In this document: piece by piece, positions 17,651 to 54,425 of the stretch
How the letters are laid out: each line of letters starts with the position of its first letter
Numbering within the stretch: position 1 is the first letter of the stretch
Assembly (NCBI GenBank): GCA_030390025.1
Contig: JASTWF010000123.1
Span: 620,001-684,000 of the forward strand
Source: Squalus acanthias
Lineage: Eukaryota
Reading direction: 5' to 3'
DNA: 64,000 bases
Position numbers and translations under genes: made by a program
Notes under the pieces: generated by a model
Database searches by the model: none
What the model saw: the letters and a program-made list of their open reading frames with translations, nothing else
What the model was told of the DNA's origin: nothing

Positions 17651-17727
17651 GGACTGTTTCTGTTTCTGTCTATTCTACTGAATTCTACCATTCGGCAGTG
17701 CCAGCAAAGAAGAAGCCGCTTGTGGTA

Positions 17728-20456: not shown

Positions 20457-23400
20457 AAGAGACTCAGATCAAACTGTCAGGACGGAGAGTGAAGAGACTC
20501 AGATCAAACTGTCACAGGACGGAGAGTGAAGAGACTCAGATCAAACTGTCACAGGACGGAGAGTGAAGAGACTCAGATCAAACTGTCAGGACGGAGAGTG
20601 AAGAGACTCAGATCAAACTGTCAGGACGGAGAGTGAAGAGACTCAGATCAAACTGTCACAGGACGGAGAGTGAAGAGACTCAGATCAAACTGTCAGGACG
20701 GAGAGTGAAGAGACTCAGATCAAACTGTCACAGGACGGAGAGTGAAGAGACTCAGATCAAACTGTCAGGACGGAGAGTGAAGAGACTCAGATCAAACTGT
20801 CAGGACGGAGAGTGAAGAGACTCAGATCAAACTGTCAGGACGGAGAGTGAAGAGACTCAGATCAAACTGTCAGGACGGAGAGTGAAGAGACTCAGATCAA
20901 ACTGTCACAGGACGGAGAGTGAGAGACTCAGATCAAACTGTCCAGGACGGAGTGAGGAGACTCAGATCAAACTGTCAGGACGGAGAGTGAAGAGACTCAG
21001 ATCAAACTGTCACAGGACGGAGTGAGGAGACTCAGATCAAACTGTCAGGACGGAGAGTGAGGAGACTCAGATCAAACTGTCACAGGACGGAGAGTGAGGA
21101 GACTCAGATCAAACTGTCACAGGACGGAGTGAAGAGACTCAGATCAAACTGTCACAGGACGGAGAGTGAGGAGACTCAGATCAAACTGTCAGGACGGAGA
21201 GTGAAGAGACTCAGATCAAACTGTCACAGGACGGAGAGTGAGGAGACTCAGATCAAACTGTCACAGGACGGAGTGAGGAGACTCAGATAAAACTGTCAGG
21301 ACGGAGAGTGAAGAGACTCAGATCAAACTGTCACAGGACGGAGTGAGGAGACTCAGATCAAACTGTCAGGACGGAGAGTGAGGAGACTCAGATCAAACTG
21401 TCACAGGACGGAGAGTGAGGAGACTCAGATCAAACTGTCACAGGACGGAGTGAAGAGACTCAGATCAAACTGTCACAGGACGGAGAGTGAGAGACTCAGA
21501 TCAAACTGTCACAGGACGGAGAGTGAAGAGACTCAGATCAAACTGTCAGGACGGAGAGTGAAGAGACTCAGATCAAACTGTCAGGACGGAGAGTGAAGAG
21601 ACTCAGATCAAACTGTCACAGGACGGAGTGAGAGACTCAGATCAAACTGTCAGGACGGAGAGTGAGAGACTCAGATCAAACTGTCAGGACGGAGAGTGAA
21701 GAGACTCAGATCAAACTGTCACAGGACGGAGAGTGAAGAGACTCAGATCAAACTGTCAGGACGGAGAGTGAAGAGACTCAGATCAAACTGTCAGGACGGA
21801 GAGTGAAGAGACTCAGATCAAACTGTCAGGACGGAGAGTGAAGAGACTCAGATCAAACTGTCAGGACGGAGAGTGAAGAGACTCAGATCAAACTGTCACA
21901 GGACGGAGAGTGAAGAGACTCAGATCAAACTGTCACAGGACGGAGAGTGAAGAGACTCAGATCAAACTGTCACAGGACGGAGAGTGAAGAGACTCAGATC
22001 AAACTGTCACAGGACGGAGAGTGAAGAGACTCAGATCAAACTGTCAGGACGGAGAGTGAAGAGACTCAGATCAAACTGTCACAGGACGGAGTGAAGAGAC
22101 TCAGATCAAACTGTCAGGACGGAGAGTGAAGAGACTCAGATCAAACTGTCAGGACGGAGAGTGAAGAGACTCAGATCAAACTGTCAGGACGGAGTGAAGA
22201 GACTCAGATCAAACTGTCACAGGACGGAGAGTGAAGAGACTCAGATCAAACTGTCAGGACGGAGAGTGAAGAGACTCAGATCAAACTGTCACAGGACGGA
22301 GAGTGAAGAGACTCAGATCAAACTGTCAGGACGGAGAGTGAAGAGACTCAGATCAAACTGTCAGGACGGAGAGTGAAGAGACTCAGATCAAACTGTCACA
22401 GGACGGAGAGTGAAGAGACTCAGATCAAACTGTCAGGACGGAGAGTGAGAGACTCAGATCAAACTGTCACAGGACGGAGTGAAGAGACTCAGATCAAACT
22501 GTCAGGACGGAGAGTGAAGAGACTCAGATCAAACTGTCACAGGACGGAGAGTGAAGAGACTCAGATCAAACTGTCAGGACGGAGAGTGAAGAGACTCAGA
22601 TCAAACTGTCACAGGACGGAGAGTGAAGAGACTCAGATCAAACTGTCAGGACGGAGAGTGAAGAGACTCAGATCAAACTGTCACAGGACGGAGAGTGAAG
22701 AGACTCAGATCAAACTGTCAGGACGGAGAGTGAAGAGACTCAGATCAAACTGTCACAGGACGGAGGGAAGAGACTCAGATCAAACTGTCAGACGGAGTGA
22801 AGAGACTCAGATCAAACTGTCACAGGACGGAGAGTGAAGAGACTCAGATCAAACTGTCAGGACGGAGAGTGAAGAGACTCAGATCAAACTGTCAGGACGG
22901 AGAGTGAAGAGACTCAGATCAAACTGCCACAGGACGGAGTGAGGAGACTCAGATCAAACTGTCAGGACGGAGAGTGAAGAGACTCAGATCAAACTGTCAG
23001 GACGGAGTGAAGAGACTCAGATCAAACTGTCACAGGACGGAGAGTGAAGAGACTCAGATCAAACTGTCAGGACGGAGAGTGAAGAGACTCAGATCAAACT
23101 GTCAGGACGGAGAGTGAAGAGACTCAGATCAAACTGCCACAGGACGGAGTGAGGAGACTCAGATCAAACTGTCACAGGACGGAGTGAAGAGACTCAGATC
23201 AAACTGTCACAGGACGGAGAGTGAAGAGACTCAGATCAAACTGTCAGGACGGAGAGTGAAGAGACTCAGATCAAACTGTCACAGGACAGAGAGTGAAGAG
23301 ACTCAGATCAAACTGTCAGGACGGACAGTGAGGAGACTCAGATCAAACTGTCAGGACGGAGAGTGAAGAGACTCAGATCAAATTGTCAGGACGGAGAGTG

Positions 23401-24949
23401 AAGAGACTCAGATCAAACTGTCAGGACGGAGTGAAGAGACTCAGATCAAACTGTCAGGATGGAGTGAAGAGACTCAGATCAAACTGTCAGGACGGAGAGT
23501 GAAGAGACTCAGATCAAACTGTCACAGGACGGAGTGAAGAGACTCAGATCAAACTGTCAGGATGGAGTGAAGAGACTCAGATCAAACTGTCAGGACGGAG
23601 AGTGAAGAGACTCAGATCAAACTGTCACAGGACGGAGTGAAGAGACTCAGATCAAACTGTCAGGATGGAGTGAAGAGACTCAGATCAAACTGTCAGGACG
23701 GAGAGTGAAGAGACTCAGATCAAACTGTCACAGGACGGAGAGTGAAGAGACTCAGATCAAACTGTCAGGACGGAGAGTGAAGAGACTCAGATCAAACTGT
23801 CACAGGACGGAGAGTGAAGAGACTCAGATCAAACTGTCAGGACGGAGTGAAGAGACTCAGATCAAACTGTCAGGACGGAGAGTGAAGAGACTCAGATTAA
23901 ACTGTCAGGACGGAGAGTGAAGAGACTCAGATCAAACTGCCACAGGACGGAGTGAGGAGACTCAGATCAAACTGTCAGGACGGAGAGTGAGGAGACTCAG
24001 ATCAAACTGTCAGGACGGAGAGTGAGGAGACTCAGATCAAACTGTCACAGGACGGAGAGTGAAGAGACTCAGATCAAACTGTCAGGACGGAGAGTGAAGA
24101 GACTCAGATCAAACTGTCACAGGACGGAGAGTGAAGAGACTCAGATCAAACTGTCACAGGACGGAGTGAAGAGACTCAGATCAAACTGTCAGGACGGAGA
24201 GTGAAGAGACTCAGATCAAACTGTCACAGGACGGAGAGTGAAGAGACTCAGATCAAACTGTCAGGACGGAGAGTGAAGAGACTCAGATCAAACTGTCAGG
24301 ACGGAGAGTGAAGAGACTCAGATCAAACTGTCAGGACGGAGAGTGAAGAGACTCAGATCAAACTGTCACAGGACGGAGAGTGAAGAGACTCAGATCAAAC
24401 TGTCAGGACGGAGAGTGAAGAGACTCAGATCAAACTGTCACAGGACGGAGAGTGAAGAGACTCAGATCAAACTGTCACAGGACGGAGAGTGAAGAGACTC
24501 AGATCAAACTGTCACAGGACGGAGAGTGAAGAGACTCAGATCAAACTGTCAGGACGGAGAGTGAAGAGACTCAGATCAAACTGTCACAGGACGGAGAGTG
24601 AAGAGACTCAGATCAAACTGTCACAGGACGGAGAGTGAAGAGACTCAGATCAAACTGTCACAGGACGGAGAGTGAAGAGACTCAGATCAAACTGTCACAG
24701 GACGGAGAGTGAAGAGACTCAGATCAAACTGTCACAGGACGGAGAGTGAAGAGACTCAGATCAAACTGTCACAGGACGGAGAGTGAAGAGACTCAGATCA
24801 AACTGTCACAGGACGGAGTGAAGAGACTCAGATCAAACTGTCACAGGACGGAGTGAAGAGACCCAGATCAAACTGTCACAGGACGGAGTGAAGAGACTCA
24901 GATCAAACTGTCAGGACGGAGTGAAGAGACTCAGATCAAACTGTCACAG
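20457..24949. repeat. 33/35/37-bp satellite, copy 1
   Basis: Unit GAGTGAAGAGACTCAGATCAAACTGTC(AC)AGGACG(GA). Confidence 0.97.
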
Positions 24950-25012
24950 AAGTGTATTGTTTTAATTTAAATTAATTAAAGGGTAAATAATAAATTTAAT
25001 TAATTACATAGA

Positions 25013-25954
25013 ATGGGAGAGCAGGTGATGTGTTACTGCTGCAATATGTGGGAGCTGGTGGACACCATTGATGTTCATGGTGATCACATTTGCAATAAGT
25101 GTTGGCTGCTCGAGAAACTCCGGCTCCGTATTGATGAGCTGGAGTCCGAGCTTCAAACACTGCGACACATCAGGGAGGGGGAGAGTTACCTGGACTCTGT
25201 GTTCCAGGAGGTACTCACACCAATTAGATTAACTAATTCAGATGTAGCCCGTGATCAGGGACAGGAGGGTGTGACTACGAGTGAGGCAGGTACGGGGATC
25301 CAGGAGGTAGTGTTGGAGGAGCCGCAGCCCTTGCTCTTGTCCAACAGGTTCGAGGCTCTTACTCCCTGTGAGGACGGGAGCAGGGACTGCAGGGAGGATG
25401 AGCAACCTGGCCACAGCACTGTGGTACGGGGAGCCATTCAAGTGGGGGGAGTAAAAAGAAAAGTTGTAGTGGTAGGGGATAGTATCATTAAGGGGATAGA
25501 TAGGGTTCTTTGCAGCCAAGAGCGAGAGTCCCGAAGGCTATGTTGCCTGCCCGGTGCCAGGGTTAAGGACATCTCCTCTGGGCTGGAGAGAAACTTGGAG
25601 TGGGAGGGGGAAGATCCAGTTGTCGTGGTCCATGTTGGTACCAATGACATAGATAGGACAAGGAATGAGGTTCTGCTGAGGGAGTATGAGCAGCTAGGGG
25701 CCAAATTAAAAAACAGAATCTCTGGATTACTACCTGAGCCACGAGCAAATTTGGCTAGGGTAAATAAAATCAGAGAGTTAAATGCGTGGCTCAAAGAATG
25801 GTGTGGGAGAAATGGGTTTTGCTTCCTGGGACACTGGCACCAGTACTGGGACAGGAGAGAGCTGTTCCGTTGGGACGGACTTCACTTGGCCAGTGCTGGG
25901 ACTAGAGTCCTGGCAAATCGAATAACTAGGGCTGTAGAGAGGGCTTTAAACTAA
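25013..25954 (+). CDS. CR1 ORF1 (Zn finger/coiled coil plus SGNH esterase); 15-nt in-frame deletion
   Basis: CxxC...CxxC, VGDSII, HVGTND and DGLHL motifs. Confidence 0.88.
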   Translation: MGEQVMCYCCNMWELVDTIDVHGDHICNKCWLLEKLRLRIDELESELQTLRHIREGESYLDSVFQEVLTPIRLTNSDVARDQGQEGVTTSEAGTGIQEVVLEEPQPLLLSNRFEALTPCEDGSRDCREDEQPGHSTVVRGAIQVGGVKRKVVVVGDSIIKGIDRVLCSQERESRRLCCLPGARVKDISSGLERNLEWEGEDPVVVVHVGTNDIDRTRNEVLLREYEQLGAKLKNRISGLLPEPRANLARVNKIRELNAWLKEWCGRNGFCFLGHWHQYWDRRELFRWDGLHLASAGTRVLANRITRAVERALN

Positions 25955-25992
25955 TTAGTGGGGGGGAGGTTTCAAGAGAGCAAAAAATAAAA

Positions 25993-28943
25993 ATGTCAGC
26001 GGAGAAGGCAATAGAGCAAAGTAGCAGTGGGGTAATTAAAAACCAGAGCGTGTCAGGAAGGGACAGAATATATAAAGATAAAGGTAAAGTAGTAAAGGGG
26101 GTAAAAGCAGGAATAAATTGTCACAGAACATATTTAAAAGTTCTTTATCTGAATGCACGCAGCATTTGTAACAAAATAGACGAGTTGACGGTACAAATAA
26201 CTACGTATGGGTATGATCTTGTGGCCATTACAGAAACATGGCTGCAGGGTGACAACGACTGGGAATTAAATATGCCAGGGTATTTAACAATCAGGAAGGA
26301 CAGGCAGGAAGGAAGAGGAGGTGGGGTAGCTATGTTAATAAAGGAAGGAATCACTGTATTACAGAGAAATGATATTGGGTCAAAGGATCAGGATAATGAA
26401 ACAGTTTGGGTGGAGATAAGGAATAATAAGGGGAAAAAAACACTAGTGAGAGTAGTATATAGGATCCTAATAGTTGCAACTCTGCTGGAAGAAGTATTAA
26501 TCAGGAAATAGTTGGGGCATGTAATAAGGGAACAGCTATAATTATGGGGGATTTTAACTATCATATTAACTGGACAAATCAAATTGGGCAGGGCAGCCTT
26601 GAGGAAGAGTTTATTGAGTGTATTAGGGATGGATTTCTTGAGCAGTATGTAACTGATCCTACAAGGGGGCAAGCAACCTTGGACCTGGTCCTGTGTAATG
26701 AGTCAGGATTAATTAATAATGTCCTAGTTAAGGATCCCCTTGGAATGAGTGACCATAACATGGTTGAATTCCATATCCAATTAGAGGGTGAGAAGGTTGG
26801 TTCTCAAACAAGCGTACTGAGCTTGAATAAAGGAGACTATGATGGTATGAGAGCGGAATTGATTAAAGTGGACTGGGAAAATAGATTAAAGGGTAAGACG
26901 GTACATGAGCAGTGGTGTTCATTTAAGGAGTTATTTTACAACTTTCAAAAAATATATATTCCACTGAGGAAAAAAGGGTGTAAAAGAAATGACAGCCATC
27001 CGTGGCTAAGTAAAGAAATTAAGGATAGTATCCAACTAAAAACAAGGACATATAAGGTAGCCAAACTTAGTGGGAGGATAGAAGATTGGGAAGTCTTCAA
27101 AAGACAGCAAAAAGTAACTAAAGGATTGATTAAGAAAGGGAAGATAGATTATGAAAATAAATTAGCAAAAAATATAAAAACAGATAGCAAGAGTTTCTAT
27201 AGTTATATAAAAAGAAAAAGGGTGGCTAAGGCAAACGTAGGTCCCTTAGAGGATGAGACCGGGAAATTAATGGTGGGAAACATGGAGATGGCAAAAATGC
27301 TGAACAAATATTTTGTTTCAGTCTTTACGGTAGAGGACACTAAGAATATCCCAACACTGGACAAACAGGGGGCTCTAGGGGGGGAGGAGCTAAATACGAT
27401 TAAAATCACTAAGGAATTGGTACTCAGTAAAATAATGGGACTCAAGGCGGATAAATCCCCTGGACCTGATGGCTTACATCCTAGGGTCTTGAGGGAAGTG
27501 GCAGTAGGGATTGTGGATGCTTTGGTAATAATTTTCCAAAATTCCCTGGACTCAGCAAAGGTCCCGGCAGATTGGAAAACTGCTAATGTAACACCCTTAT
27601 TTAAAAAGGGTAGTAGGCAGAAGGCTGGAAATTATAGACCAGTTAGTCTAACAGCTGTGGTGGGTAAAATTTTGGAGTCTATTATTAAGGAGACAGTAAC
27701 GGAACATTTAGATAAACATAATTTAATAGGACAAAGTCAGCATGGCTTTATGAAGGGGAAGTCATGTCTGACAAATTTGCTTGAGTTCTTTGAGGACATA
27801 ACGTACAGGGTGGGTAAAGGGGAACCAATGGACGTAGTGTATTTAGACTTCCAGAAGGCATTCGACAAGGTGCCACATAAAAGATTATTGCTCAAGATAA
27901 AAAATCACTGGATTGGGGGTAATATTCTGGCATGGGTGGAGGATTGGTTATCTAACAGGAAGCAGAGAGTTGGGATAAATGGTTCATTCTCGGACTGGCA
28001 ACCAGTAGCCAGTGGTGTTCCGCAGGGGTCAGTGCTGGGTCCCCAACTCTTTACAATCTATATTAACGATTTGGAGGAGGGGACCGAGTGTAACATATCA
28101 AAGTTTGCAGATGATACAAAGATGGGAGGGAAAGTAGAAAGTGAGGAGGACATAAAAAACCTACAAGGGGATATAGACAAGCTGGGTGAGTGGGCGGAGA
28201 TTTGGCAGATGCAATACAATATTGGAAAATGTGAGGTTATGCACTTTGGCAGGAAAAATCAGAGAGCAAGTTATTATCTTAATGGCGAGAAACTGGAAAG
28301 TACTGCAGTACAAAGGGATCTGGGGGTCCTAGTGCAAGAAAATCAAAAAGTTAGTATGCAGGTGCAGCAGGTGATCAAGAAGGCCAACGGAATGTTGGCT
28401 TTTATTGCTAAGGGGATAGATTATATAAACAGGGAGGTATTGCTGCAGTTATATAAGGTATTGGTGAGACCGCATCTGGAATACTGCATACAGTTTTGGT
28501 GTCCATACTTAAGAAAAGACATACTTGCTCTCGAGGCAGTACAAAGAAGGTTCACTCGGTTAATCCCCGGGATGAGGGGGTGGACATATGAGGAGAGGTT
28601 GAGTAGATTGGGACTCTACTCATTGGAGTTCAGAAGAGTGAGAGCCGATCTTATTGAAACATATAAGATTGTGAAGGGGCTTGATCGGGTGGATGCGGTA
28701 AGGATGTTCCCAAGGATGGGTGAAACAAGAACTAGGGGGCATAATCTTAGAATAAGGGGCTGCTCTTTCAAAACTGAGATGAGGAGAAACTTCTTCACTC
28801 AGAGGGTAGTAGGTCTGTGGAATTTGCTGCCCCAGGAAGCTGTGGAAGCTACATCATTAAATAAATTTAAAACAGAAATAGACAGTTTCCTAGAAGTAAA
28901 GGGAATTAGGGGTTATGGGGAGGGGGCAGGAAATTGGACATGA
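25993..28943 (+). pseudogene. CR1 ORF2 (APE plus RT), frameshift at about 26463
   Basis: YLNARS, ITETW, GDFN, SDH and FADD motifs; 1 bp shorter than copy 2 at YRPP. Confidence 0.92.
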
Positions 28944-29736
28944 GGCTGAGTTCGGATCGGTCGAGGCCCTGTGGATGGCGGAGCGGGCCCAGGGGCTGTG
29001 TGGCTGGGTCCTGCTCCTACTTCTTGTGTTCTTTAGATTTGAGGTGAGGATCAGATCAGCCATGATCTTATTGAATGGTGGAGCAGGCTCGAAGGGCCGA
29101 TTGGCCGACTCCTGCTCCTATTTCTTATGTTCTTATGTTCTTATTGTAAAATGCTGTTATTATTCAGCGAGTGTGTCTAATTCTGTTTACCCTTGGGGAG
29201 AATTTAAAAAAACACTTCCCTTGTGAACATTGAGCTCCTCTTGTTGACTGATGTCAGTATCCGGGAGGTGGGTGAATTTCTGCTTTCATCCAAAACCTAC
29301 TGGGTGATACAGGGCACCAGTTGGATCCCCGTGTCCTATCTCACCAATTTGCCTCAGGACCAACATTAAAGGGGCCAACCCCCCTTTTACTGGATCAATG
29401 TGACATTTCTCCCCCTCCACCCCCACCCGCTCTTCCAGCACCTCCTCCCACCCCACAGCCTCTTTGGGCGAGAGATGGGCTTCCAATTCTTGCCAACTAG
29501 AGTCAGAGCAGAGGGGCAATGAACAAGCTGTGGAGTCGGAACCCGATCCAAACTGGCCCGGCAGTGTTCACAACAAATTACCATACAGACAAGGTGTGGA
29601 TTGGGTGGGGGAACCCAAGCTCGGGCTGTATCTCCTCCCTCTGTTAACACTTCATCCCGACAGACACCATGGACTGGATTTGAACCCGCCAAACGGTTTG
29701 CAATAAAATTCACCGACCAATTCCATTCACGACCAA

Positions 29737-29909
29737 TCACTTTATTTCGCACATTTGTGGGTGACATTCATACTCGTGCTCAGCACCGTCAGAGAGGGTC
29801 ACGTTAAGGTTAGTCTGGTAGAGGAATCGCGGCATACACCCAGAACAAGAGCAAGTAGGACAAGAGCAAGCAGCATTTCCACCCGGAACAGGAAGATTTG
29901 TGTTTCCAC
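29737..29909 (-). CDS. IgW: IgW short-form Cys-rich secretory tail exon, copy 1
   Basis: TTCCAG acceptor in phase 1; GGN...CSCPTCSCSGCMPRFLYQTNLNVTLSDGAEHEYECHPQMCEIK-stop, resembling elasmobranch IgW-short/IgX tails. Confidence 0.8.
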
Positions 29910-30587
29910 CTGGAACTGTAAGAGTTGCAGATTTAAGCATTATACATTTTCACCTCCTCTCCCCTGTGCTGGGAAAGTGGGAGCTCCACACGGCCCCTGA
30001 ACTCTGCTCCATCCTGAGTTTTTTAGGATCCTAAAGGGACCAGATCATGGAGACCATGACAAGCTGTTTCACCTTGTCGAGGACAGCAGAACCAGAGCCC
30101 ACGACCTATGCTTGAAGCAGGATCGGGGAGGGGTTCAATGCAAATCTAATGTCGTGAGCCAATATTTCAGTCAGTGGTCGAATTCAAATGCAAAATTGGA
30201 TAGATTTCTTTCAGAAAATAACATTTGGGGGACAGTAGAAAGGGAGCAGGTAGGCGGTGATTTGAACTGTGGACGGTATCAGATGGGCCGCCCGTTTTAC
30301 ACCCCGCCCCATTTTCTTTTCTATTGAAATCAGCAGAGAGTAAAATTGGGCGAGGCTGTAAACGGGCGGCCGATCCCGGCAGTTTCCCCGCCCAGCGCGT
30401 TATGTTAAAATTACTCCCTTTAAGTGTCGATTGAATATCAACACAAAGTACTAAACATCTTGCTTCCCTCAACAAGGTCGATATTAGGGACAGTGATTCA
30501 CGAATTGAGGGCGAGCGTCAGCACTTTAAGTTAATACAAGGCTGAATTACTGACGGTAAATTCTTTTTCCCCTCAGACACCACTTAC

Positions 30588-30893
30588 CCTCTCGATACCT
30601 CATGCTGATCCTGTCATTGAAGCTCGAAGGTGTGCGGGACACTTCACAAGTGTAGACATTCCCTTTGGTCCATTCCTCCACAGGCACCGTCAGGTAAGTG
30701 ACCGTTTCAAAGGTAGCTTCAGTTCTCAGTGTGGCAGGGAGAACAACATCCGTTTGGTCCATTCCGGCTTTCTTCCAGGAAACCTGCAGGCTGTTGGGAT
30801 AGAATCCGGATATCACACAGCCCAGGACAGCTTTAGTTTGATTGTAGAGAACCTCCGGGGATGGAACAAGGGCGATGAGCTTCGGAGCTCGAG
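30588..30893 (-). CDS. IgW: IgW CH2 exon, copy 1
   Basis: TTACAG acceptor and GTAAGT donor, phase 1/1; C1-set motifs VLGCVISGFYP, VSWKK, EEW and YTCEV. Confidence 0.9.
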
Positions 30894-31536
30894 CTGTAAC
30901 ACATTGCCATATTTCAGATTACACGATTGTTTTGGCCACAGTAAAGGTGTGCTCCATTCCCCCAACATCTAGAGCAAGCGTCACGATGCCAGCCCCCTCC
31001 ATAATGTTGTCAATTTGCCGGTGATCATGTCATAAGAACATAAGAAATAGGAGCAGGAGTCGGCCATTTGGCCCCTCGAGCCTGCTCCGCCATTCAATAA
31101 GATCATGGCTGATCTTCTCCCTCATCTCCACTTTCCTGCACTATCCCCATGTCGTAAGGGTGAGACCCATCGTGACATGCTGGAGAGAGGTGGGATTGGG
31201 AGAGTTGGCAGTATACCTAGGGTATGCCAAGTGGAGCATCCCATTCTACAGTGATATGGAGCAAAGGCAGGTAAATAGGGGTGAGGTGCAGATCAGCCAT
31301 GATCTAATTGAATGGTTGAGCAGGCTCAAGGAGCTGGAGGGCCTACACCTGTTCCTGTATTCCTGTGTATAGGAGTAGATGGGGAGAAACTGTTTCCACT
31401 GGCAGGAGGGTTGCTAAGAATTCATTCGGGTTCTAATCTTCAACAACCTCCTACATTGGTTGGTGAAATTTCCTTGTCCAATTTCATCCCCCGACACCAG
31501 TGCAGTTTTAAATGGCAAATAATGTCTTGTACTAAC

Positions 31537-31856
31537 ATTTAGGTTCAGGTTTTCGGGTCTGAGCTTCCACCATTTCGTTTGACTTGTACTCCGCCTTGCA
31601 GTGGTAGACCCTATTGGCGTTCCAATCCGACACAGAGACTTTGAGCACACTGCTCATTGTGTACTTCATATTTTGCCCCAAGACTGCCGGATACTTCTTG
31701 ATTCCAGTAGTGATGTCTGCACCGTTACTGGACCATGTCTGACTGATGATCTCGGGCTGAAAGTCCTTGACCAGGCAGAGGAGGCTGATCTCATCTTGGT
31801 TGGAGTTCCTGCCACAGGAAAGGTTGGAGATGTAGACTGATGGTGTGGCCTGGACA
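31537..31856 (-). CDS. IgW: IgW CH1 exon, copy 1 (acceptor phase anomalous, possibly pseudo)
   Basis: [35 protein letters not shown] and YHC motifs; donor T|GTTAGT. Confidence 0.88.
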
Positions 31857-32003
31857 CTTGAAACATAAATAGATGCACACAGGTTCGTCCAGTAAAAAAG
31901 TGCATTACAGGCGGATGCAGCAGGAGAGATTTTGTTATGTGTAAAACCAGCCATTTCTGAAAACAATTACACTGATTCGCAAGGAGTTTACAGTTTTACG
32001 TCT

Positions 32004-32190
32004 CAGTTGTGGCTCAGTTGGTATCATGGTATCACTCTCATCTCTGTGTCAGAAGGTTGTGGGTTCAACCCCACTCCAGAGACTTGAGCGTATAATGTAG
32101 GCCGTCACTCCAGTGCAGTACTGAGGGAGTGCTCCACTGTCTGAGGTGCCGTCTTTCAGATGAGATGTTGAAGCGAGGACCTGTCTGCAT
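32004..32190 (+). mobile_element. Deu-domain SINE (SacSINE1-like)
   Basis: tRNA-like head plus CAGTACTGAGGGAGTGCT...GGTGCCGTCTTTCAGATGAG. Confidence 0.75.
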
Positions 32191-32845
32191 TCCCAAAACC
32201 AATTAATGTTTCCTGTATAACTGTCAGCACCAGATGATAGGAGTTTATAGAAAAGGAAGAATTTGCCACCAAATTATTAGAATTACTAAGTCTTGTTTAG
32301 CGGTGACATTGATTGGGAGATTAAAATACCTTAGAGTCTACACAAGTGACAGGCATAACCTAGAGGGAATGGTAATATGGGTAAGATAGCAAATAGGACC
32401 CGTAGAAATACATTGCGTAAGAGGTTGAGTGTTCAAATCCTGCCATGGCAAGTTGGGAAATTGAGACCATTAAATCTGGTGATTTCTGGGCTGGCACCAG
32501 TTAAAATGACTGGGAGAAGCTGCCGGATTGTGGGGAAAAACCCACCTGATTCATTAAAGTTCTTCAGGGAAGGGAACCTGCCGCCCCTCCCCGGTCTGGG
32601 CCTCCATGTGACTCCAGTCACACACATCACATGGCTGACTCTTAATGACTCCGGGCAACGAGAGATGGGTATTAATGCTGTAAGATTCCAGGAGTGAGTG
32701 TGGAATCAGGTAAACGACCAGCAAAAGCCAATCAACAGTTGGGAGATTCTCAGTGGAAACGTGGGGAGTTGTTAAGGAATTATTAACGAGGCTACAATGG
32801 TAATTCATTGGGGACAGGGCAGGGGGAGGGGTAGCAGGACACAAT

Positions 32846-33610
32846 GGCCTGAAAATTAAACCTAATACATGAGAGTACGCACTGTGTACTCTCGCGTATT
32901 AGGTCCCGAATTGCCGGTTTCCTGCATGCACTGCGCATGCGCGGGAAACCGGCACTTCGTGTATTGCAAAGGGGGCGGCTCCTAAGTGAACCACGTGCGC
33001 GCTACAGGTTGTGCGCATGCAGTGCACTTAGTTTTTTTTTCAGGTTTGAACGCGCAGGTAAGTGGTGAAGATTTTACACATGAAAAAAGGAGGCGTAGGA
33101 CCCCCTTTTAACAAGGTAAGTAGTTAATTAAGTGTTATTTTAAATTTTTTTCAACAGGTTTATCTTTTTTAGAGACTTTAAAGAAAGGTAAGTTTATTTT
33201 TATAACTTTTAAAAAGATTTTAAATTTTTTCAAAAATTTAATTTTTTGTTTAAAGTGGTTAATTTATTTAACTATACTTATTTTATTAATGTGATGGCTT
33301 TTTTTTAAAATTTAATTGAGGTTTAGCTGTTCTTTTGGGGGCTTGTAGTATTCATAGCTTTGACAGCCCTTGCTGTCAAAACTATGAATGAAAGATGGTG
33401 TGCTGCCATTGGCTCTAACTGAATCACGTGATCCCAGAGCTCGCACGAACTAATTGCGCCTCTGGGATACGCAAGCACTGCACGCTGGCAACAGGGAGAG
33501 GCTCTGAAACTAAAGTTCGTGTGGGCCCCAAACAAAAAGGTAGGCGCGGAGTGCGATATCGCGGGGAATCCTTACCCCCGCGGGAACCATCGATGTTTAA
33601 TTTCTGGGCC
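32846..33610. mobile_element. Harbinger-like MITE present only in copy 1
   Basis: TIR GGCCTGAAAATTAAAC / GTTTAATTTCTGGGCC, AAT TSD; empty site at 56375. Confidence 0.88.
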
Positions 33611-33639
33611 AATAGCAGAGAGGAGGGACAAGGTGCATA

Positions 33640-36600
33640 GAAAACTAGGAGGGATGAACAGCAACAAAACAAAGAATAGTGCAGAAAGAGCAGGAATTAG
33701 ATGGTGGATAAAAGCAAAGCTGACTAGCATGGTGTTGGAATGCATGTGTGTTAATGCGAGGAGTGTTCCAAATAACGAGCTACAGGCGCAAGTTGCCCCA
33801 TGGGGTTATGATATAGTGGCTATAACGGAGACCTGGCTTAAATATGGGCAGGAATGGGAACTAAACATTCCTGGCTGCAACGTATTCAGGAGGAATAGGG
33901 AAAGGAAAACGACAGGAGGGGTCTGGCAGTATTGATCAAGGATAATATTACAGTTCTACAGAGGGAAGAGATACTCGAGGGTTCAAAGACTGAGGGCACG
34001 AAATTCGGTGACGCCTTGTTTGGGGGCGGTAGCCGAGTTAAGACCGGAAATTTAGCGCCCAGCGCGGAAGTACCGCCCCGGCCGCTAAATTCGGCACTCC
34101 ACTTCCTGTTGGGGCGGTAACCGAGGTGATGTCGGGGCGCGCTCGGCGGAAGCTCCGCGGAGCGCTGCCGCGTTTCAACGTCCCTCCTCTTCATTTAAAG
34201 GGGAGGGCCACTGCACACTCTGCAGGGACTCCGATGGCCCACACTAGGCCACCACAGAGGGCCAAACTGGAGGTCAGCCAAACAAAGAAAATGGCAGCGT
34301 GGGTCATGGCCGTACCGCCCTTTTAAATACCGTCCCGGAGGTCGGCCCGGTTCGCGACCTGCGAGGCTGGCACTGACATTGCCCGCGGCAGCCTCGCGGG
34401 GCGCAGCCGAATTTCTGGCGCAGGGCAGTAAGGGACGTGGCGCTATCAGGAAGCGCCTCAGCAACGCCCCACCGAATTTCTCGGGAGGCGCTTTCCCCCT
34501 CCGGGCAACAAGCCTGTTGCGCCCCGTTAACGCCCCCCCTGGAGGTGCTAACGGGGCGCAAAGGAGCCGAATTTCTAGCCCTGAATCTATTTGGTTAGAG
34601 TGAAGGAACAGAAATGGAGCTGTTACATTGCTGGGTGTTTACTATAGCCCCCCAAATAGTGAGAAGGAGATAGAGGGGCAAATCTGTGAGCAAATTTCAG
34701 AAAAATGTTTAAAATAATAGAGCAGTAATAGGAGGGGACTTCAATTACCCGAATATAGACTGGGGGTAAAACAGAGTAAAGGGCAAGGAGAGTAAAGAAT
34801 TCCCAAACTGTGTACAGGAGAACTTTCTTAATCTGTATGTTTCTAGCCAAACAAGGAAGGAAGCAGTGCTGGATCTAGTTCTAGCGAATGAAGTTAGGAA
34901 AGTGGAGTTTGTTGCTGTGGGAGAAGATCTGGGTCAAAGTGATCATAATATAATTAGGTTTAAAGTAGTTATGGACAGGGACAAAGAAAAATCAACGGTG
35001 AAGAGAGCCAATTTCAGTGATTTGACGAGGGATCGAGCACAGGTGGACTGGAAACAAAGATTGTCCAGGAAAACAGTGAATGAGCAATGGCCGGCCTTCA
35101 CAGCAGAGATACTTCGGGTACGAACCAAACATATTCCCATAAGGAGGAAAGATGGGGCGTCCAAAGCTAGAGCTCCCTGGATGGCAAAGGAAATAGAGGT
35201 TAAAATAAAACAGAAAAAGGAGGTTTATGGCAAATGTCAGGTACAGAATAAAATCGAAAACTAGGCACAATACAGAAAGTGCAGAGGGAAATTGAAAAAG
35301 AATATAAGAAGGGCAAAGAGAGAATATGAGAAAAGATTAGTGGGCAATATAAAAGGGAACCCAAAAATCTTTTACAAACATTCAGAAAGTAAAAGGATAG
35401 TTAAAGGAATGGTGGGGTAGATTCGGGACAAAAAAGGAAATCTTCTTGTGGAAGCAGAGGGCATGACTGAGGTACTGAATGAGTACTTTGCATCTGTCTT
35501 CACAAAAGAAGAGGATGAAGTTAATGTCGCAGCAGAGGAGTGGGGAGTAGAGATACTGGATAGGATAAAAATAGATAGAAAGGAGATGCTAAATAGGATG
35601 GCATCACTCAAAGTTAACAAGTCACCCGGTCCAGATGGGATGCATCCCAGGTTGCTGAGGAAAGCTAAGGTGGAGATAACAGGGTCTGACCACACTCTTT
35701 CAATCCTCATTCGATAGGAGTGATGCCAGAGGACTGGAGCATTGTAAATGTTACATCCCTTTTCCTAAAAGGGGAGAGGGATAAACCTGGTAACAACAGG
35801 CCAATCAGTCTAATGTCAGTGGTGGGAAAACTACTAGAGACCACTGTCAAGGACAAAATTAATTCTCACTCGGAGAAGCATGGATTATTAAGGGACAACC
35901 AGCACAGATTTGTTAAAGGAAAATTGTGTCTGACTAATCTGATTGAGTTCTTTAATGCAGTAACAAAGAGGCTTGACGAAGGTAGTGCAGTAGATGTTGT
36001 ATCTATGGACTTTCAAAAGGTATTTATTCGCAAAATAGGAGGGACGGTGGTAACTTGGGTATATAACTGGCGAAGGGATAGGAGGCAGAGAGTAGTGGTG
36101 AACAGATGTTTTTCTGACTGGAGAGAAGTATGCAGTGGGGTCCCCCAGGGGTGGGTATTAGGACCATTGCTTTTCTTGTTATATGTAAATGACTTGGACT
36201 TGGGTATAGGCAAGTGTGTGAGATACTTGGCTTTATAAATAGGGGATTGAATACAAAAACAAGGAAGTCATGCTAAACCTTTACAAATCACTGGTTAGGC
36301 CCCAGCTAGAGTATTATGTACAATTCTGGGCACCACACTTTAGGAAGGATGTCAAGGCCTTGGAGAGGGTACAGAGGAGGTTTACCAGGATGATCCCAGG
36401 GATGAGGGACTTCAGTTATGTGGAGAGATTGGAGAAACTGGGCTTGTTCTCCTTAGAGCAGAGAAGGTTAATGGAACACCTAATTGAGGTTGTTGAAATT
36501 ATGAGGGGTTTTGATAGAGCAGGTAGGGAGAAACTGTTTCCTCTGGCAAGTGGGTTGGTAACCAGAGGTGATAGATTTAAAATAATTGGTAAAAGAAGTA

Positions 36601-36745
36601 GAGGGGAAATGAGGAGAAATGTTTTCACACAGTGGGTTGTTAAGATCTGGAACGCTCTACCTGAAAGGGTGGTAGAATCAGATTCCACGGGCACTTTCAA
36701 AAGGCAATTGCCTCCTTCTGCGTTGTAACTATTCTATGATTCTAT
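33640..36745 (+). mobile_element. Old degraded CR1 ORF2, copy 1
   Basis: NARS, ITETW, KSPGPDG, GVPQG and LVRPQLEY motifs, plus tail. Confidence 0.88.
33994..34581. mobile_element. Harbinger-like MITE in CR1, present in both copies
   Basis: TIR GGGCACGAAATTCGG / CCGAATTTCTAGCCC, TGA TSD; removal restores SKTESIWLE. Confidence 0.85.
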
Positions 36746-37805
36746 CTTTTAAGAAAGAAAGAAAGATTTGCATTTATAAAGCGCATTTTCACACCCACCG
36801 AACATCTCAAACCGCCTGACAACCACTAAATACTTTCGGAAGTGTAATTGTAAAGGCAATTGTACATGTACTTGAAGAGGACTAATTTGCAGGGGAAAAA
36901 GCTGGGGTGTGGGACTAAATTGTACAGCCCCCTTGGGATGAGTAAGATGGCATGAGGGTAAGATGGCGGAAGGGTGCAAGATTGTATGATTCCAGGGCTA
37001 TGGGGAAAATAAGGCCAAAGGGACCTGTTTAGGGTTAATACAGAGCTATGGGGAGAGCGCGGCAGTAGGATGAGTTTGGGATTGATACAGGGCTATGGGG
37101 AGAGAGCGGGGCAGTGGGTTAGTTTGGGATTGATACAGGGCTATGGGGAGAGAGCGGGCAGTGGGATTAGTTTGGGATTGATACAGGGCTATGGGGAGAG
37201 ATTGGAGCAGTAGGATTAGTTTGGGATTGATACAGGGCTATGGGGAGTGAACAGGATTAGTTTCGGATAGATACAGGGCTATGGGGAGCAGTAGGATTCG
37301 TTTGGGATTGATACAGGGATATGGGGAGAGAGTGGAGCAGTAGGATTAGTTTGGGATGGATACAGGGCTATGGGGAGAGATTGGAGCAGTAGGATTAGTT
37401 TACGATTGATTCAGGGCTATGGGGAGAGAGTGGAGCAGTGGGATTAGTTTGGGATTGATACAGTGCTATGGGGAGAGAATGGAGCAGTGGGATTAGTTTG
37501 GGATTGATACAGGGCTATGGGGAGGGAGTGGAGCAGTAGGATTAGTTTGGGATGGATACAGGGCTATAGGGAGAGATTGGAGCAGTAGGATTCGTTTGGG
37601 ATTGATACAGGGCTATGGAAGAGATTGGAGCAGTAGGATTAGTTTGGGATGGATACAGGGCTATGGAGAGAGATTGGAGCAGTAGGATTAGTTTGGGATA
37701 GATACAGTGCTATGGGGAGAGATTGGAGCAGTATGATTAGTTTGGGATTGATACAGGGCTATGGGGAGAGAGTGGAGCAGTAGGATTAGTTTGGGATTGA
37801 TACAG

Positions 37806-38555
37806 AAGAACATAAGATGTAGGAGCAGGAGTAGGTCATTTGGCTCCTCGAGCCTGCTCCGCCATTCAATAACATCATGGCTGATCTGATCTTGGCCTCA
37901 ACTCCACTTCCCTGCCCGCTCCCCATAACCCTTGACTCCCTTACCATTCAAAAATCTGTCTATCTCCACCTTAAATATATTCAATGCCCCAGCCTCCACA
38001 GCTCTCTGGGGAAGAGAATTCCAAAGATTCACGACCCTCTGAGAGAAAAAAGTCCTCCTCATTTCCGTTTTAAATGGGTGCCCCCTTATTCTGAAATTAT
38101 GCCCCCTAGTTCTAGATTCCCCCACTAGGGGAAACATCCTCTCTGCATCTACCCTGTCAAGCCTCTTCAGAATCTTATATGTTTCAATAAGATCATCTCT
38201 CATTCTTCTAAACTCCAATGAGTATAGGCCCAACCTGCTCAACCTTTCTTCATAAGACAACCCTTTCATCTCTGGAATCAACCTCATGAACCTTCTCTGA
38301 ACTGCCTCCAGTGCAAGTAGATCCTTCTTTAAATAAGGAGACCAAAACTGTACGCAGTACTCCAGGTGTGGTCTCACCAACGCCCTGTACAGTTGTAACA
38401 GGACTTCCCTACTTTTATACTCCAGCCCCTTTGCAATAAAGGCCAACATTCCATTAGCCTTCCTAATTACTTGCTGTACCTGCATGCTGACTTTTTGTGA
38501 TTCATGTACAAGGACCCCCAGATCCCTCTGTACCTCAGCATTTTGTAATCTCTCT
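37806..38555 (-). mobile_element. CR1 3' fragment
   Basis: 195-aa ORF matching the CR1 C-terminus, plus tail. Confidence 0.9.
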
Positions 38556-38777
38556 GGGGCTATGTGGAGAGAGTGGAGCTGTCGGATTAGTTTGGGATTG
38601 ATACAGGGCTATGGGGAGAGATTGGAATAGTGGGATTAGTTTGGGATTGATACAGGGCTATGGGGAGAGAGTGGAGCAGTGGGATTAGTTTTGGATTGAT
38701 ACAGGGCTATGGGGAGAGATTGGAATAGTGGGATTAGTTTGGGATTGATACAGGGCTATGGGGAGAGAGTAGAGAAG

Positions 38778-39160
38778 TCTTCTTCTTAGGCAGTCCCTCG
38801 GAACCGAGGATGACTTGCTTCCACATTAAAAATGAGTTCGCAGGTGACTGATGAGTCCAATGCGGGACCTACAGTCTCTGTCACAGGTGGGGCAGACAGT
38901 GGTTGAAGGGGCAGGTGGGTGGGGTGCTTGGGTTGACGTGCGCTCCTTGCGCTGCCTGCGCTTGGCTTTCGCTTGCTCCCGGCGAAGAGACTCGAGATGT
39001 TCGGCGCCTTCCCGGATGCTTCTCCACTTTGTGCGGTCTTGGGCCCGGGAAATACCAGGTGTCGGTGGGGATGTTACACTTTTTCAAGGAGGCTTTGAGG
39101 GTGTCCTTGAAGTGTTTCCTCTGCCCACCTGGGGCTCTCTTGCCGTGCCGGAGCTCCGAG
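38778..39160 (-). mobile_element. RTE-type LINE 3' end
   Basis: FKDTLKASLKKCNI on the minus strand; (GAA)n tail. Confidence 0.7.
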
Positions 39161-40804
39161 TTGGGAGCAGTGGGGTTAGTTTGGGATGGATACAGGGCTA
39201 TGGGGAGAGAGTGGAGCAGTGGGATTAGTTTGGGATTGATACAGGGCTATGGGGAGAGATTGGAGCAGTGGGATTAGTTTGGGATGCTATGGGGAGAGAT
39301 TGGAGCAGTCGGATTAGTTTGGGATTGATACAGGGCTATGGGGAGGGAGCAGGGTAGTCGGATTTCTTTGGAATTGATACAAGGCTGTGGGGAGAGAGTG
39401 GAGCAGTGGGATTAGTTTGGGATTGATACAGGGCTGTGGGGAGACAGTGGAGCAGTGGGATTAGTTTGGGATTGATACAGGGCTGTGGGGAGAGAGTGGA
39501 GCAGTGGGATTAGTTTGGGATTGATGCAGGGCTGTGGGGAGAGAGTGGAGCAGTGGGATTAGTTTGGGATTGATACAGGGCTGTGGGGAGTGAGTGGAGC
39601 AGTGGGATTAGTTTGGGATTGATACAGGGCTATGGGAGAGATTGGAGCAGTAGGATTAGTTTGGGATTGATACAGGGCTGTGGGGAGAGAGTGGAGCAGT
39701 GGGATTAGTTTGGGATTGATACAGGGCTGTGGGGAGAGAGTGGAGCAGTGGGATTAGTTTGGGATTGATACAGGGCTATGGGGAGAGAGTGGAGCAGTGG
39801 GATTAGTTTGGGATTGATGCAGGGCTGTGGGGAGAGAGTGGAGCAGTGGGATTAGTTTGGGATTGATACAGGGCTATGGGGAGAGAGTACAGCAGTGGGA
39901 TTACTTTGGGATTGATACAGGGCTGTGGGGAGAGAGTGGAGCAGTGGGATTAGTTTGGGATTGATACAGGGCTGTGGGGAGAGAGTGGAGCAGTGGGATT
40001 AGTTTGGGATTGATACAGGGCTGTGGGGAGAGAGTGGAGCAGTGGGATTAGTTTGGGATTGATACAGGGCTATGGGGAGAGAGTGGAGCAGTGGGATTAG
40101 TTTGGGATTGATACAGGGCTGTGGGGAGAGAGTGGAGCAGTGGGATTAGTTTGGGATTGATACAGGGCTGTGGGGAGAGAGTGGAGCAGTGGGATTAGTT
40201 TGGGATTGATACAGGGCTGTGGGGAGAGAGTGGAGCAGTGGGATTAGTTTGGGATTGATACAGGGCTATGGGGAGGAGTATTTGCCAGAAGCCAAACCAC
40301 AAGCAGCTGGTTCATTGTAATAATAACCCATGGCCACTGGGTGGCAGTGCAACAGCACCAGATGTAGAGGGGCTGCTGGGAATGTCAGTGAAATTACAGC
40401 ACAGGACGATCCCACTGGGCCAGAGGGGTCTGAGCCAGTGGGAGCTCTTCAACTGAGTCTGTCTGCCTCTAAAAGGGAAGGACAGGGAATGGCTTAAACA
40501 GTTAGTACCTCATTGACAGTGAAGAGCTCTCGAACATCCATCGGATGTGAAAGGCATTTAATAAATATCTCACTCTCTCTCTCTCTGTCTCTTTCTCTCA
40601 CACTCTCAGTCTCACTTTGTTCCTTACTCTCACTCTCTCTCTCTCTCCTGCTTCCTCTGGTACTCTCTCTGACTCTCCATGTTTCTCTCTGTGTCTGTCT
40701 GTCTCTCTCTCACTCTCCCTCTCTCTCCCTCGCTCACTCTCCCTCTCACTTACTCTCTCTCCCTCTCTCCCTTTCTCTGACTCTCTTAGGCTGGTAGGAG
40801 TGTG

Positions 40805-46600: not shown

Positions 46601-47327
46601 CCCCAATATCTGGTCCTGGGTTTTATTCCCCCAATACCTGGTCCTGGTGTGTATTCCCCCAGTATCTGGTCCTGGGTTGTATTCCTCCAATATCTGGTCC
46701 TGGGTTGTATTCCCCCAGTATCTGGTCCTGGGTTGTATTCCCCCAGTATCTGGTCCTGGGGTGTATTCCTCCAATATCTGTTCCTGGGGTTTATTCCTCC
46801 AATATCTGATCCTGGTGTGTATTCCCCCAGTATCTGGTAATAGAAACATAGAAACATAGAATCTAGGAGCAGGAGTAGGCCATTTGGCCCATCGAGCCTG
46901 CTCCACCATTCAATATGATCATGGCTGATCATCCAAATCCAGTACCCTGTCCCTGCTTTAATCCCCACAGTACACATATCCCACCCTACCCCCGTAACCC
47001 CACGTATTTAATTCCCCCCGAACACTAAGGGTCAATTTATCATAGCCAAATCAACCTAACCCGCACATTTTTGGACTGTGGGAGGAAACCGGAGCACCCG
47101 GAGGAAACCCACGCAGACACGGGGAGAATGTGCAAACTCCACACAGACAGTCACCCGAGGTCAGATTCGAACCCGGGTCCCTGGCGCTGTGAGGCACCAG
47201 TGCTAACCACTATGAGGTACTGGTGTGTATTCCCCCAATATCTGGTCCTGGGGTGTATTCCCCCAATATCTGGTCCTGGGGTGTATTCCCGCAATCTCTG
47301 TTTCTGGGGTGTATTCCCACAATATCT
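43645..47327. repeat. 28-bp satellite CCCCAGTATCTGGTCCTGGTGTGTATTC
   Basis: Degenerate at 43645-44200, homogeneous at 44200-46838, resumes at 47215; interrupted by a CR1 tail and a SINE. Confidence 0.95.
47010..47212 (-). mobile_element. HE1/V-SINE
   Basis: tRNA head plus V-domain TGTGTGGAGTTTGCACATTCTCCCCGTGTCTGCGTGGGTTTCCTCC. Confidence 0.85.
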
Positions 47328-48475
47328 GAAGAGACTCAGATCAAACTGTCACAGGGGGAGAGTGAAGAGACTCAGATCAAACTATCAGGACGGAGAGTGA
47401 AGAGACTCAGATCAAACTGTCACAGGACGGAGAGTGAAGAGACTCAGATGAAACTGTCACAGGACGGAGAGTGAAGAGACTCAGATCAAACTGTCAGGAC
47501 GGAGAGTGAAGAGACTCAGATCAAACTTTCAGGACGGAGAGTGAAGAGACTCAGATCAAACTGTCAGGACGGAGTGAAGAGACTCAGATCAAAATATCAG
47601 GACGGAGAGTGAAGAGACTCAGATCAAACTGTCAGGACGGAGAGTGAAGAGACTCAGATCAAACTGTCACAGGACGGAGAGTGAAGAGACTCAGATCAAA
47701 CTGTCAGGACGGAGAGTGAAGAGACTCAGATCAAACTGTCACAGGACGGAGAGTGAAGAGACTCAGATCAAACTGTCAGGACGGAGAGTGAAGAGACTCA
47801 GATCAAACTGTCACAGGACGGAGAGTGAAGAGACTCAGATCAAACTGTCATAGGACAGAGAGTGAAGAGACTCAGATCAAACTGTCACAGGACGGAGAGT
47901 GAAGAGACTCAGATCAAACTGTCAGGACGGAGTGAAGAGACTCAGATCAAACTGTCAGGACGGAGAGTGAAGAGACTCAGATCAAACTGTCACAGGACGG
48001 AGAGTGAAGAGACTCAGATCAAACTGTCAGGACGGAGAGTGAAGAGACTCAGATCAAACTGTCAGGACGGAGTGAGGAGACTCAGATCAAACTGTCAGGA
48101 CGGAGAGTGAAGAGACTCAGATCAAACTGTCAGGACGGAGTGAGGAGACTCAGATCAAACTGTCAGGACGGAGAGTGAAGATACTCAGATCAAACTGTCA
48201 GGACGGAGTGTGAAGAGACTCAGATCAAACTGTCAGGACGGAGAGTGAAGAGACTCAGATCAAACTGTCAGGACGGAGTGAAGAGACTCAGATCAAACTG
48301 TCAGGACCGAGTGAAGAGACTCAGATCAAACTGTCACAGGACAGAGTGAAGAGACTCAGATCAAACTGTCACAGGACGGAGTGAGGAGACTCAGATCAAA
48401 CTGTCAGGACGGAGTGAAGAGACTCAGATCAAACTGTCAGGACGGAGTGAAGAGACTCAGATCAAACTGTCACAG
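47328..48475. repeat. 33/35/37-bp satellite, copy 2
   Basis: Same unit as 20457-24949, shorter array. Confidence 0.96.
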
Positions 48476-52490: not shown

Positions 52491-53283
52491 GGCTGAGTTC
52501 GGATCGGTCGAGGCCCTGTGGATGGCGGAGCGGGCCCAGGGGCTGAGTGGCTGGGTCCTGCTCCTACTTCTTGTGTTCTTTAGATTTGAGGTGAGGATCA
52601 GATCAGCCATGATCTTATTGAATGGTGGAGCAGGCTCGAAGGGCCGATTGGCCGACTCCTGCTCCTATTTCTTATGTTCTTATGTTCTTATTGTAAAATG
52701 CTGTTATTATTCAGCGAGTGTGTCTAATTCTGTTTACCCTTGGGGAGAATTTAAAAAAACACTTCCCTTGTGAACATTGAGCTCCTCTTGTTGACTGATG
52801 TCAGTATCCGGGAGGTGGGTGAATTTCTGCTTTCATCCAAAACCTACTGGGTGATACAGGGCACCAGTTGGATCCCCGTGTCCTATCTCACCAATTTGCC
52901 TCAGGACCAACATTAAAGGGGCCAACCCCCCTTTTACTGGATCAATGTGACATTTCTCCCCCTCCACCCCCACCCGCTCTTCCAGCACCTCCTCCCACCC
53001 CACAGCCTTTCTGGGCGAGAGATGGGCTTCCAATTCTTGCCAACTAGAGTCAGACCAGAGGGGCAACGAACAAGCTGTGGAGTCGGAACCCGATCCAAAC
53101 TGGCCCGGCAGTGTTCACAACAAATTACCTTACAGACAAGGTGTGGATTGGGTGGGGGAACCCAAGCTCGGGCTGTATCTCCTCCCTCTGTTAACACTTC
53201 ATCCCGACAGACACCATGGACTGGATTTGAACCCGCCAAACGGTTTGCAATAAAATTCACCGACCAATTCCATTCACGACCAA

Positions 53284-53456
53284 TCACTTCATTTCGCACA
53301 TTTGTGGGTGACATTCATGCTCGTGCTCAGCACCGTCAGAGAGGGTCACGTTAAGGTTAGTCTGGTAGAGGAATCGCGGCATACACCCAGAACAAGAGCA
53401 AGTAGGACAAGAGCAAGCAGCATTTCCACCCGGAACAGGAAGATTTGTGTTTCCAC
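53284..53456 (-). CDS. IgW: IgW short secretory tail exon, copy 2
   Basis: Paralog of 29737-29909; ends CEMK-stop. Confidence 0.78.
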
Positions 53457-54119: not shown

Positions 54120-54425
54120 CCTCTCGATACCGCATGCTGATCCTGTCATTGAAGCTCGAAGGTGCGCGGGACACTTCACAAGTGTAGACATTCCCTTTGG
54201 TCCATTCCTCCACAGGCACCGTCAGGTAAGTGACCGTTTCAAAGGTAGCGCCGGTTCTCCGTGTGGCAGGGAGAACAACATCCGCTTGGTCGATTCCGGC
54301 TTTCTTCCAGGAAACCTGTAGGCTGTTGGGATAGAATCCGGATATCACACAGCCCAGGACAGCTTTAGTTTGATTGTAGAGAACCTCCGGGGATGGAACA
54401 AGGGAGATGAGCCTCGGAGCTCGAG
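54120..54425 (-). CDS. IgW: IgW CH2 exon, copy 2
   Basis: Intact splice sites and reading frame. Confidence 0.9.

Follow-up and report, generated by a model that had tools for sequence, protein, structure and literature searches.

The window, that is the whole stretch of 64,000 nucleotides analysed here, is cartilaginous-fish DNA as judged from homology and contains a direct duplication that emerges from self-comparison. Copy A extends from 20457 to approximately 40280, and copy B starts at 47327 and continues past the window end; the spacing between the two copies is about 23.5 kb. On the minus strand, both copies carry IgW CH1, CH2 and a short secretory exon only, and can be described as constant-only fragments. 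The principal features are:

20457..24949, no strand, 35-bp satellite at the start of copy A, about 127 units
24950..29450, plus strand, left low-divergence flank of copy A, 19/4500 substitutions, with a young CR1-type LINE
29451..34083, no strand, high-divergence tract of copy A, 87/3850 columns (2.26%)
29740..29915, minus strand, copy A exon for the cysteine-rich tail of short-form secretory IgW, 56% to P0021 (E 5e-16)
30588..30893, minus strand, IgW CH2 exon of copy A, a C1-set domain flanked by an AG acceptor and a GT donor
31537..31857, minus strand, IgW CH1 exon of copy A, a C1-set domain with 85% identity to Squalus acanthias IgW
32846..33610, no strand, A-only insertion of about 765-768 bp, inside the high-divergence tract
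33994..34581, no strand, second insertion, presumably MITE-like, with terminal inverted repeats and a TGA duplication, in A and B
34084..39163, plus strand, right low-divergence flank of copy A, 15/4066 substitutions
47327..48472, no strand, 35-bp satellite at the start of copy B, about 33 units
53009..56825, no strand, the same high-divergence tract in copy B, from first to last dense difference
53287..53463, minus strand, secretory exon of copy B, without AATAAA
54118..54426, minus strand, IgW CH2 of copy B
55070..55389, minus strand, IgW CH1 of copy B, in-frame TGA near the exon end (55087)

The IgW domains give Pfam C1-set matches with E values of 1e-16 and 4e-17. Among 29 homologues, the best identity of CH1 is 85%, to Squalus acanthias IgW P0013; the homologue search with CH1 returned no protein above this value, so there is no close functional paralog among the matches. 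The cysteine-rich tail is located at 29740-29916 by tblastn of P0021, P0022, P0025 and P0027. In elasmobranchs, the short secretory form of IgW consists of two C domains and a cysteine-rich tail, examples being P0025 from nurse shark and P0021 from Pristiophorus. The fragments resemble this form, with CH1, CH2 and tail exon in order on one strand and 85% and 79% identity to P0013. An AATAAA overlaps the last codons of the secretory exon in copy A and is absent from copy B. At the start of the tail exon (29870-29915, minus strand), an internal near-duplication adds PGGNTNLPV ahead of PGGNAACSC, making the exon longer than its counterpart in P0021.

The search for V, J and leader covered the window, which reaches 32 kb upstream of copy A and 8.6 kb upstream of copy B. 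With the 29 homologues, no V segment was matched at E<=1, the rest of the window yielding 22 weak and unconvincing hits (best E 0.051), and no RSS was found within three mismatches of the RSS consensus. Probes for leader, J and TM score at shuffled level, while the CH1 control scores 79, and CH3 onward and TM exons have no matches across the 29 kb downstream of copy A. Copy B may still have V or J segments past 64000. Ig exons follow a phase-1 rule. At the CH1 acceptor of both copies, the first upstream AG is in phase 2 and the next in phase 0. To find an AG in frame, at phase 1, one has to go 20 nt into the CH1 exon (31836), and copy B is identical in this respect. A functional cluster would have a phase-1 CH1 acceptor and an open frame, and this combination is found in neither copy. 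Given the out-of-frame first acceptor in A and B, the TGA in B, and the exons missing from the window, the best interpretation of both copies is that they are fragments of pseudogenes. The gene models P0021 (Pristiophorus), P0028 (Scyliorhinus) and P0029 (Cetorhinus) are likewise IgW CH1-CH2 without V; these may be similar fragments or the result of incomplete annotation. According to PMC5192425, nurse shark IgW loci comprise V, D and J together with six to eight C exons; the window is unlike these in having only CH1, CH2 and tail, with broken frames.

The fragments are embedded in repeats. The 35-bp satellite of copy B adjoins a 28-bp satellite with zero gap between them, and this contact is likely the duplication junction. 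The young CR1-type LINE is near full length, with an ORF1 esterase and an ORF2 endonuclease-RT, and occupies 24950-29145 in A and 48476-52690 in B; its 3' end (about 29145) lies 600 bp beyond the IgW secretory exon. In copy A, ORF2 has a frameshift; in copy B, the 1004-codon ORF2 frame is open and ORF1 is broken. Each copy of the element has a frameshift of its own, and no lesion is common to both. The right flank consists of decayed CR1 to about 36750, followed by 49-bp minisatellite blocks and a CR1 fragment. The A-only insertion, which we also take to be MITE-like, has imperfect terminal inverted repeats of about 15 bp and an AAT target-site duplication; its contig depth in public runs is very high, depth not being copy number. 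A contig of public run X9 ceases to fit at 32845, leaving 30 letters unmatched, which suggests that the insertion is the derived state.

Further repeats occur elsewhere in the window. A young LTR retrotransposon lies at 5396-9751, with two 247-bp LTRs that are 99.2% identical and frames interrupted by stops; its domains stand in the order RT, RNase H, integrase, which we take to be Ty3/Gypsy-like. At 928-3388 there is a retrovirus-like remnant with an integrase core whose Pfam match (rve, E 9e-06) falls short of the curated threshold; the split frames after the integrase appear env-like by eye and have no Pfam matches. A fragmented element at 16012-17669 (minus strand) looks by eye like a Penelope-like RT with a GIY-YIG motif, and the one frame scanned gave no Pfam match. 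Tandem arrays of a 28-bp unit (about 95 copies) and blocks of a 49-bp unit are found at 44205-46838, 37027-40279 and 59793-64000; the copy number of the 49-bp blocks varies between A and B (16 vs 38 in the first block).

When copy A (24950-39163) is aligned pairwise with copy B (48476-63170), excluding satellites and the A-only insertion, there are 121 substitutions in 12,416 aligned columns and 9 small indels. Divergence is non-uniform: the log-likelihood ratio for the best segment is 43.1, against a maximum of 10.9 among 300 permutations (observed value on a 50-bp grid, permutations on a 100-bp grid), and it is 22.0 against a permutation maximum of 11.7 when changes within 10 bp are collapsed. 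BIC selects three segments, with 0.42%, 2.26% (29451-34083) and 0.37% divergence, the middle one being about six times more diverged than its flanks at roughly 0.4%. By AIC a finer partition is preferred, with a 2.8% core (29451-31690) and a 1.5% shoulder (post hoc p=0.011). The left edge of the tract falls at 29355-29464 within 2 log-likelihood units and at 29244-30087 within 4; the corresponding ranges for the right edge, which is inside the second insertion (33994..34581) within decayed CR1, are 34050-34168 and 33999-34776. Over its 4.6 kb, the tract extends from about 300 bp past the tail exon to 2.2 kb upstream of CH1. A block of distinct divergence with defined edges, as expected of a conversion tract, is therefore present.

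The counts given in the earlier note are reproduced by the alignment: CH1 has 11/320 differences (3.4%; nine amino-acid-changing, one of them a stop), CH2 11/309 (3.6%; seven residues altered), the intron at 30040-30540 20/486 (4.1%), the CH2-CH1 intron 12/643 (1.9%), CR1 ORF2 11/2954 (0.37%), and the old CR1 at 34770-36750 4/1980 (0.2%). The heterogeneity that had been described as a sharp peak centred on the IgW exons is far beyond chance, but its shape is a plateau (29451-34083) in which the secretory exon is low (2/177). The observation that introns are elevated too (1.9-4.1%) holds, and the non-coding tract by itself, with 63/3044, stands well above the flanks, with 34/8566 (p=1e-15). CH1 and CH2 together have 22/629 differences (3.5%) vs 65/3221 (2.0%) in the remaining tract (p=0.028); at non-CpG sites the figures are 10/575 vs 47/3016 (p=0.72). 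The slight exon excess is confined to CpG sites and disappears without them.

The spectrum of changes is similar inside and outside the tract. Transitions account for 55/87 differences in the tract vs 21/34 in the flanks, CpG transitions for 21/87 vs 7/34, and adjacent (tandem) changes for 8/87 and 4/34. CpG sites hold 29 of the 71 strong-weak differences in the tract (8.5 expected), and the flank pattern is alike (10/29, 2.5 expected). CpG density, which is 5.7% in the tract vs 4.0% in the flanks, was considered as a cause of the tract and rejected, as non-CpG divergence is still 1.59% vs 0.29%. A locally raised mutation rate was also rejected: the X9 contig differs from A by 4.2% outside the tract (one piece, 29150-29412, a stretch without any A-B difference) and by 4.6-10% within it, as against a six-fold difference in rate. 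Tract differences are clustered (31 with a gap <=10 bp vs 17.6 expected; 0/5000 simulations), and so are those in the flanks (4 vs 1.3 expected); we attribute this to multi-nucleotide mutation of the ordinary kind or to short conversions. By homologue majority, 7 of 18 derived residues lie in A and 11 in B, several assignments being weak; with derived residues on both sides, both lineages have aged.

Related IgW copies are represented in public contigs. Contigs of four runs (of 24 listed) were aligned to 29150-36950 and the best-supported rows used, with 663 difference rows beyond these; depth in such runs is not copy number, and the species of a run may differ from that of the window. Nine listed X1 and X5 contig pieces with depths of 100-212 are 0.5-2.6% from A, and others 9-11%. 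The B allele is the alternative letter at 10 of 21 sites picked from 40 listed rows; at site 30753 in run X1, it makes up 113 of a depth of 190. Several contig pieces hold fewer differences from A than the A-B pair does, and hence mix A and B alleles. An X6 contig with another organism label (depth 5.9) has 2 differences from A over 166 positions, in a stretch with 7 differences between A and B; an A-like CH2 haplotype thus occurs beyond this assembly. A and B share a letter at 29919 that is absent from X1 and X9 (and X5) contigs, and one at 30849 that is absent from X1 and X9. Five CH2 residues common to A and B are rare among 23 homologues, and X9 has no other letter at 30834; these residues may be lineage-specific rather than pre-split decay. 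Depth is 100-200 for the IgW pieces vs 7-25 for three diverged CR1 pieces, which, depth not being copy number, is no more than a hint of multiplied IgW copies. At 29663-29821, 30234-30540 and 30834-30850, X1 and X5 contigs reveal a second, more distant IgW subfamily; its listed pieces are 9-11% diverged from A and in some cases at similar depth. No listed contig of the four runs reaches across the tract or its edges.

The divergence mosaic is real, and its likeliest cause is an exchange of DNA between gene copies that has nothing unusual about it. With 2.3% in the tract vs 0.4% in the flanks, one copy is mosaic; the former value is the usual distance among members of this IgW family, and the flanks are the recent part. 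The account we judge to be somewhat better than an even bet is a recent tandem duplication, after which a tract was taken from an older sister copy. A decayed IgW CH1-CH2-short secretory fragment would have resided in a unit rich in repeats, and a recent head-to-tail duplication of this unit would have left about 0.4% divergence. One copy would then have acquired a 4.6-kb tract from an older sister copy via ectopic gene conversion or double crossover, and the tract would record the older split (2.3%) plus ordinary neutral, CpG-driven decay. The left edge would be set by the end of donor homology at the young CR1: it lies 200-320 bp from the 3' end of this element, where homology with a donor lacking the element would stop. 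A CR1 as old as the tract is free of shared stops and frameshifts in 7.5-23% of 400 simulations, and an element younger than the tract split is weakly favoured.

The divergence of the two flanks is equal (19/4500 vs 15/4066, p=0.73) and shows no over-dispersion within them (p 0.64, 0.53). One flank age is preferred to two independent ages by a Bayes factor of about 6, a modest and prior-dependent value, and this speaks for an imported tract rather than homogenised flanks; so do the same spectrum in and out of the tract, the derived residues on both copies, and the other copies seen in contigs. The CH1 acceptor is out of frame in both tract haplotypes, and both have the decayed CR1 upstream; this makes an intact cluster a less probable donor than a sister copy of the decayed unit itself. 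The earlier suggestion of a conversion tract from another IgW paralog accordingly stands as far as the block-like tract, the equal flanks and the A and B alleles in contigs go, but the source is likely to have been such a decayed sister. From this pattern we infer the tandem-duplication origin and an exact donor; a single copy pair does not give the direction of exchange, and either copy could have been the recipient. The satellites give recency no support: the 35-bp arrays of A and B are not collinear (0 shared terminal units), and the 49-bp arrays have only scattered shared units. Letters shared by A and B inside the tract require a donor from the same sub-lineage, and a history in which A and B are themselves old sisters explains them equally. 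Possible steps on the right side (1.5%, 0.7%, 0.1%; post hoc p about 0.01 each) count against an imported tract, since they suit several homogenising events.

Such a history is the chief competitor, and we regard it as possible though clearly less probable. A and B would be an old pair (2.3%) in which conversion or unequal crossover homogenised both flanks, leaving the middle as an unconverted island, with the A-only insertion possibly blocking pairing. Two events on an old pair would replace one event plus a third copy, making the third copy unnecessary; the copies are about 23.5 kb apart, and the derived letters and acceptor defect shared within the tract, as well as the possible stepwise fall on the right side, are accommodated. 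The tract contains the A-only insertion, and PMC3924837 names insertions as a barrier to conversion. However, divergence is not centred on this insertion, which weakens the barrier model: 500-bp bins hold 9, 6, 16, 9, 14, 17, 7 and 1 differences to the left and 9, 3, 4, 0, 2 and 0 to the right. At least two events of matching age are needed, against which the Bayes factor of about 6 counts, and should the CR1 postdate the split of the tracts, a 4-kb insertion must have been copied across too.

An assembly artefact seems improbable, whether it joined two haplotypes in tandem or made the flanks alike through polishing or graph collapse. The region is multi-copy and satellite-bounded, and copy B begins at a satellite-to-satellite junction, all of which would invite such errors; yet the 64,000-base window has no N, and the flanks retain 34 differences with a CpG-rich biological spectrum. 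Polishing would hardly be able to turn 2.3% into 0.4% over kilobases, A and B tract alleles are both present in public contigs, and the two-allele case would still require an exchange event.

We give little credence to the idea that AID-linked exchange between Ig clusters took place in the germline and yielded, as a heritable product, the swapped block, the CH1-CH2-tail cassette with about 2 kb of upstream intron. For nurse shark, a review (PMC4279169) describes exchange between Ig clusters in somatic cells that is thought to be AID-mediated, and shark somatic hypermutation and V-C switching (PMC4279169, PMC5931798) share with the present case an Ig locus, some adjacent substitutions and inter-cluster exchange. 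Those processes are, however, somatic, hotspot-biased and tandem-rich, whereas the IgW tract shows the CpG spectrum of germline change, lacks hotspot bias and has no V region. Where AID-initiated breaks are repaired from a donor, no WRC bias along the tract is expected, and spectrum tests therefore do not bear on exchange in the germline. The locus would matter more, pointing to directed germline exchange, if tract edges in many clusters repeatedly fell around the constant cassette; if true, shark Ig constant regions would be shuffled between clusters in germ cells.

Divergent selection on CH1 and CH2, shielding a peak from homogenisation as for exon 5 of the primate red/green opsins, is very improbable and largely refuted. 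In its favour are the 3.5% vs 2.0% contrast of CH1 and CH2 with other parts of the tract, codon changes that alter residues in 16/22 exon substitutions (16 residues), and local clusters at the CH1 end. The changes had been called mostly amino-acid changing, and the counts of about 9 in CH1 and 7 in CH2 are confirmed, but this is the neutral expectation: 77% of exon sites are nonsynonymous, and across the three exons the 615 nonsynonymous sites hold 18.5 differences and the 180 synonymous sites 5.5 (pN/pS 0.98, with a wide interval as it is based on 24 differences). Selection is also opposed by the loss of the exon excess at non-CpG sites, by the stop in B, the out-of-frame first acceptor in both copies, and the lack of leader, V, J and TM in the window. 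In the known cases, peaks lie on functional coding sites, with flanking introns that remain low around the selected opsin peak (PMC3924837) and an excess of non-synonymous change in Drosophila Pre28 (PMC2588116); in the IgW tract, introns are as high as exons and the gene is broken.

Targeted local mutagenesis, the other mechanism proposed earlier, is weaker still: germline-fixed AID- or hypermutation-type mutagenesis aimed at an Ig locus would suit the clustered differences, but clustering is also seen in the flanks, and the hotspot motifs WRC (21 of 71, 16.7 expected, p=0.26) and WRCY (9, 9.2 expected) show no excess in a CpG-dominated spectrum, while derived changes occur in both copies, the tract includes indels and a transposon insertion, and the A-like CH2 haplotype of the X6 piece points to unchanged tract haplotypes elsewhere. 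Shark hypermutation does make tandem changes (PMC4279169, PMC5931798), but those in nurse shark TCR-alpha amount to 38-51% tandem bases, with 4.3-fold hotspot enrichment (PMC5931798), vs 8/87 here.

Mosaic divergence between neighbouring duplicates is a known outcome of gene conversion (Fawcett and Innan 2011, PMC3924837; for Drosophila, PMC2588116), and the present case resembles those in having low-divergence stretches around a high island and transposon insertions as possible barriers. Gene conversion on Ig-family C exons in shark genomes has a parallel in UrIg2, whose C-domain repeats are homogenised in this way according to PMC12227049; UrIg2, however, represents homogenisation inside one gene, and the IgW case uneven divergence between two copies of a pseudogene. 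In the literature covered, which lay mostly outside subscription journals and excluded supplements, no paper was found on this locus or on conversion between IgW constant-only pseudogenes; such fragments may be listed in table S1 of PMC12227049.

The locus represents one further case of exchange between duplicated copies. It also serves as a warning: where immune exons show a peak of divergence and most of the differences change amino acids, neutrality can still be the explanation. The findings further suggest that decayed constant-only IgW fragments have been multiplied and shuffled in this lineage of sharks, and multiplied fragments of this kind would bias counts of IgW clusters that are based on C exons.
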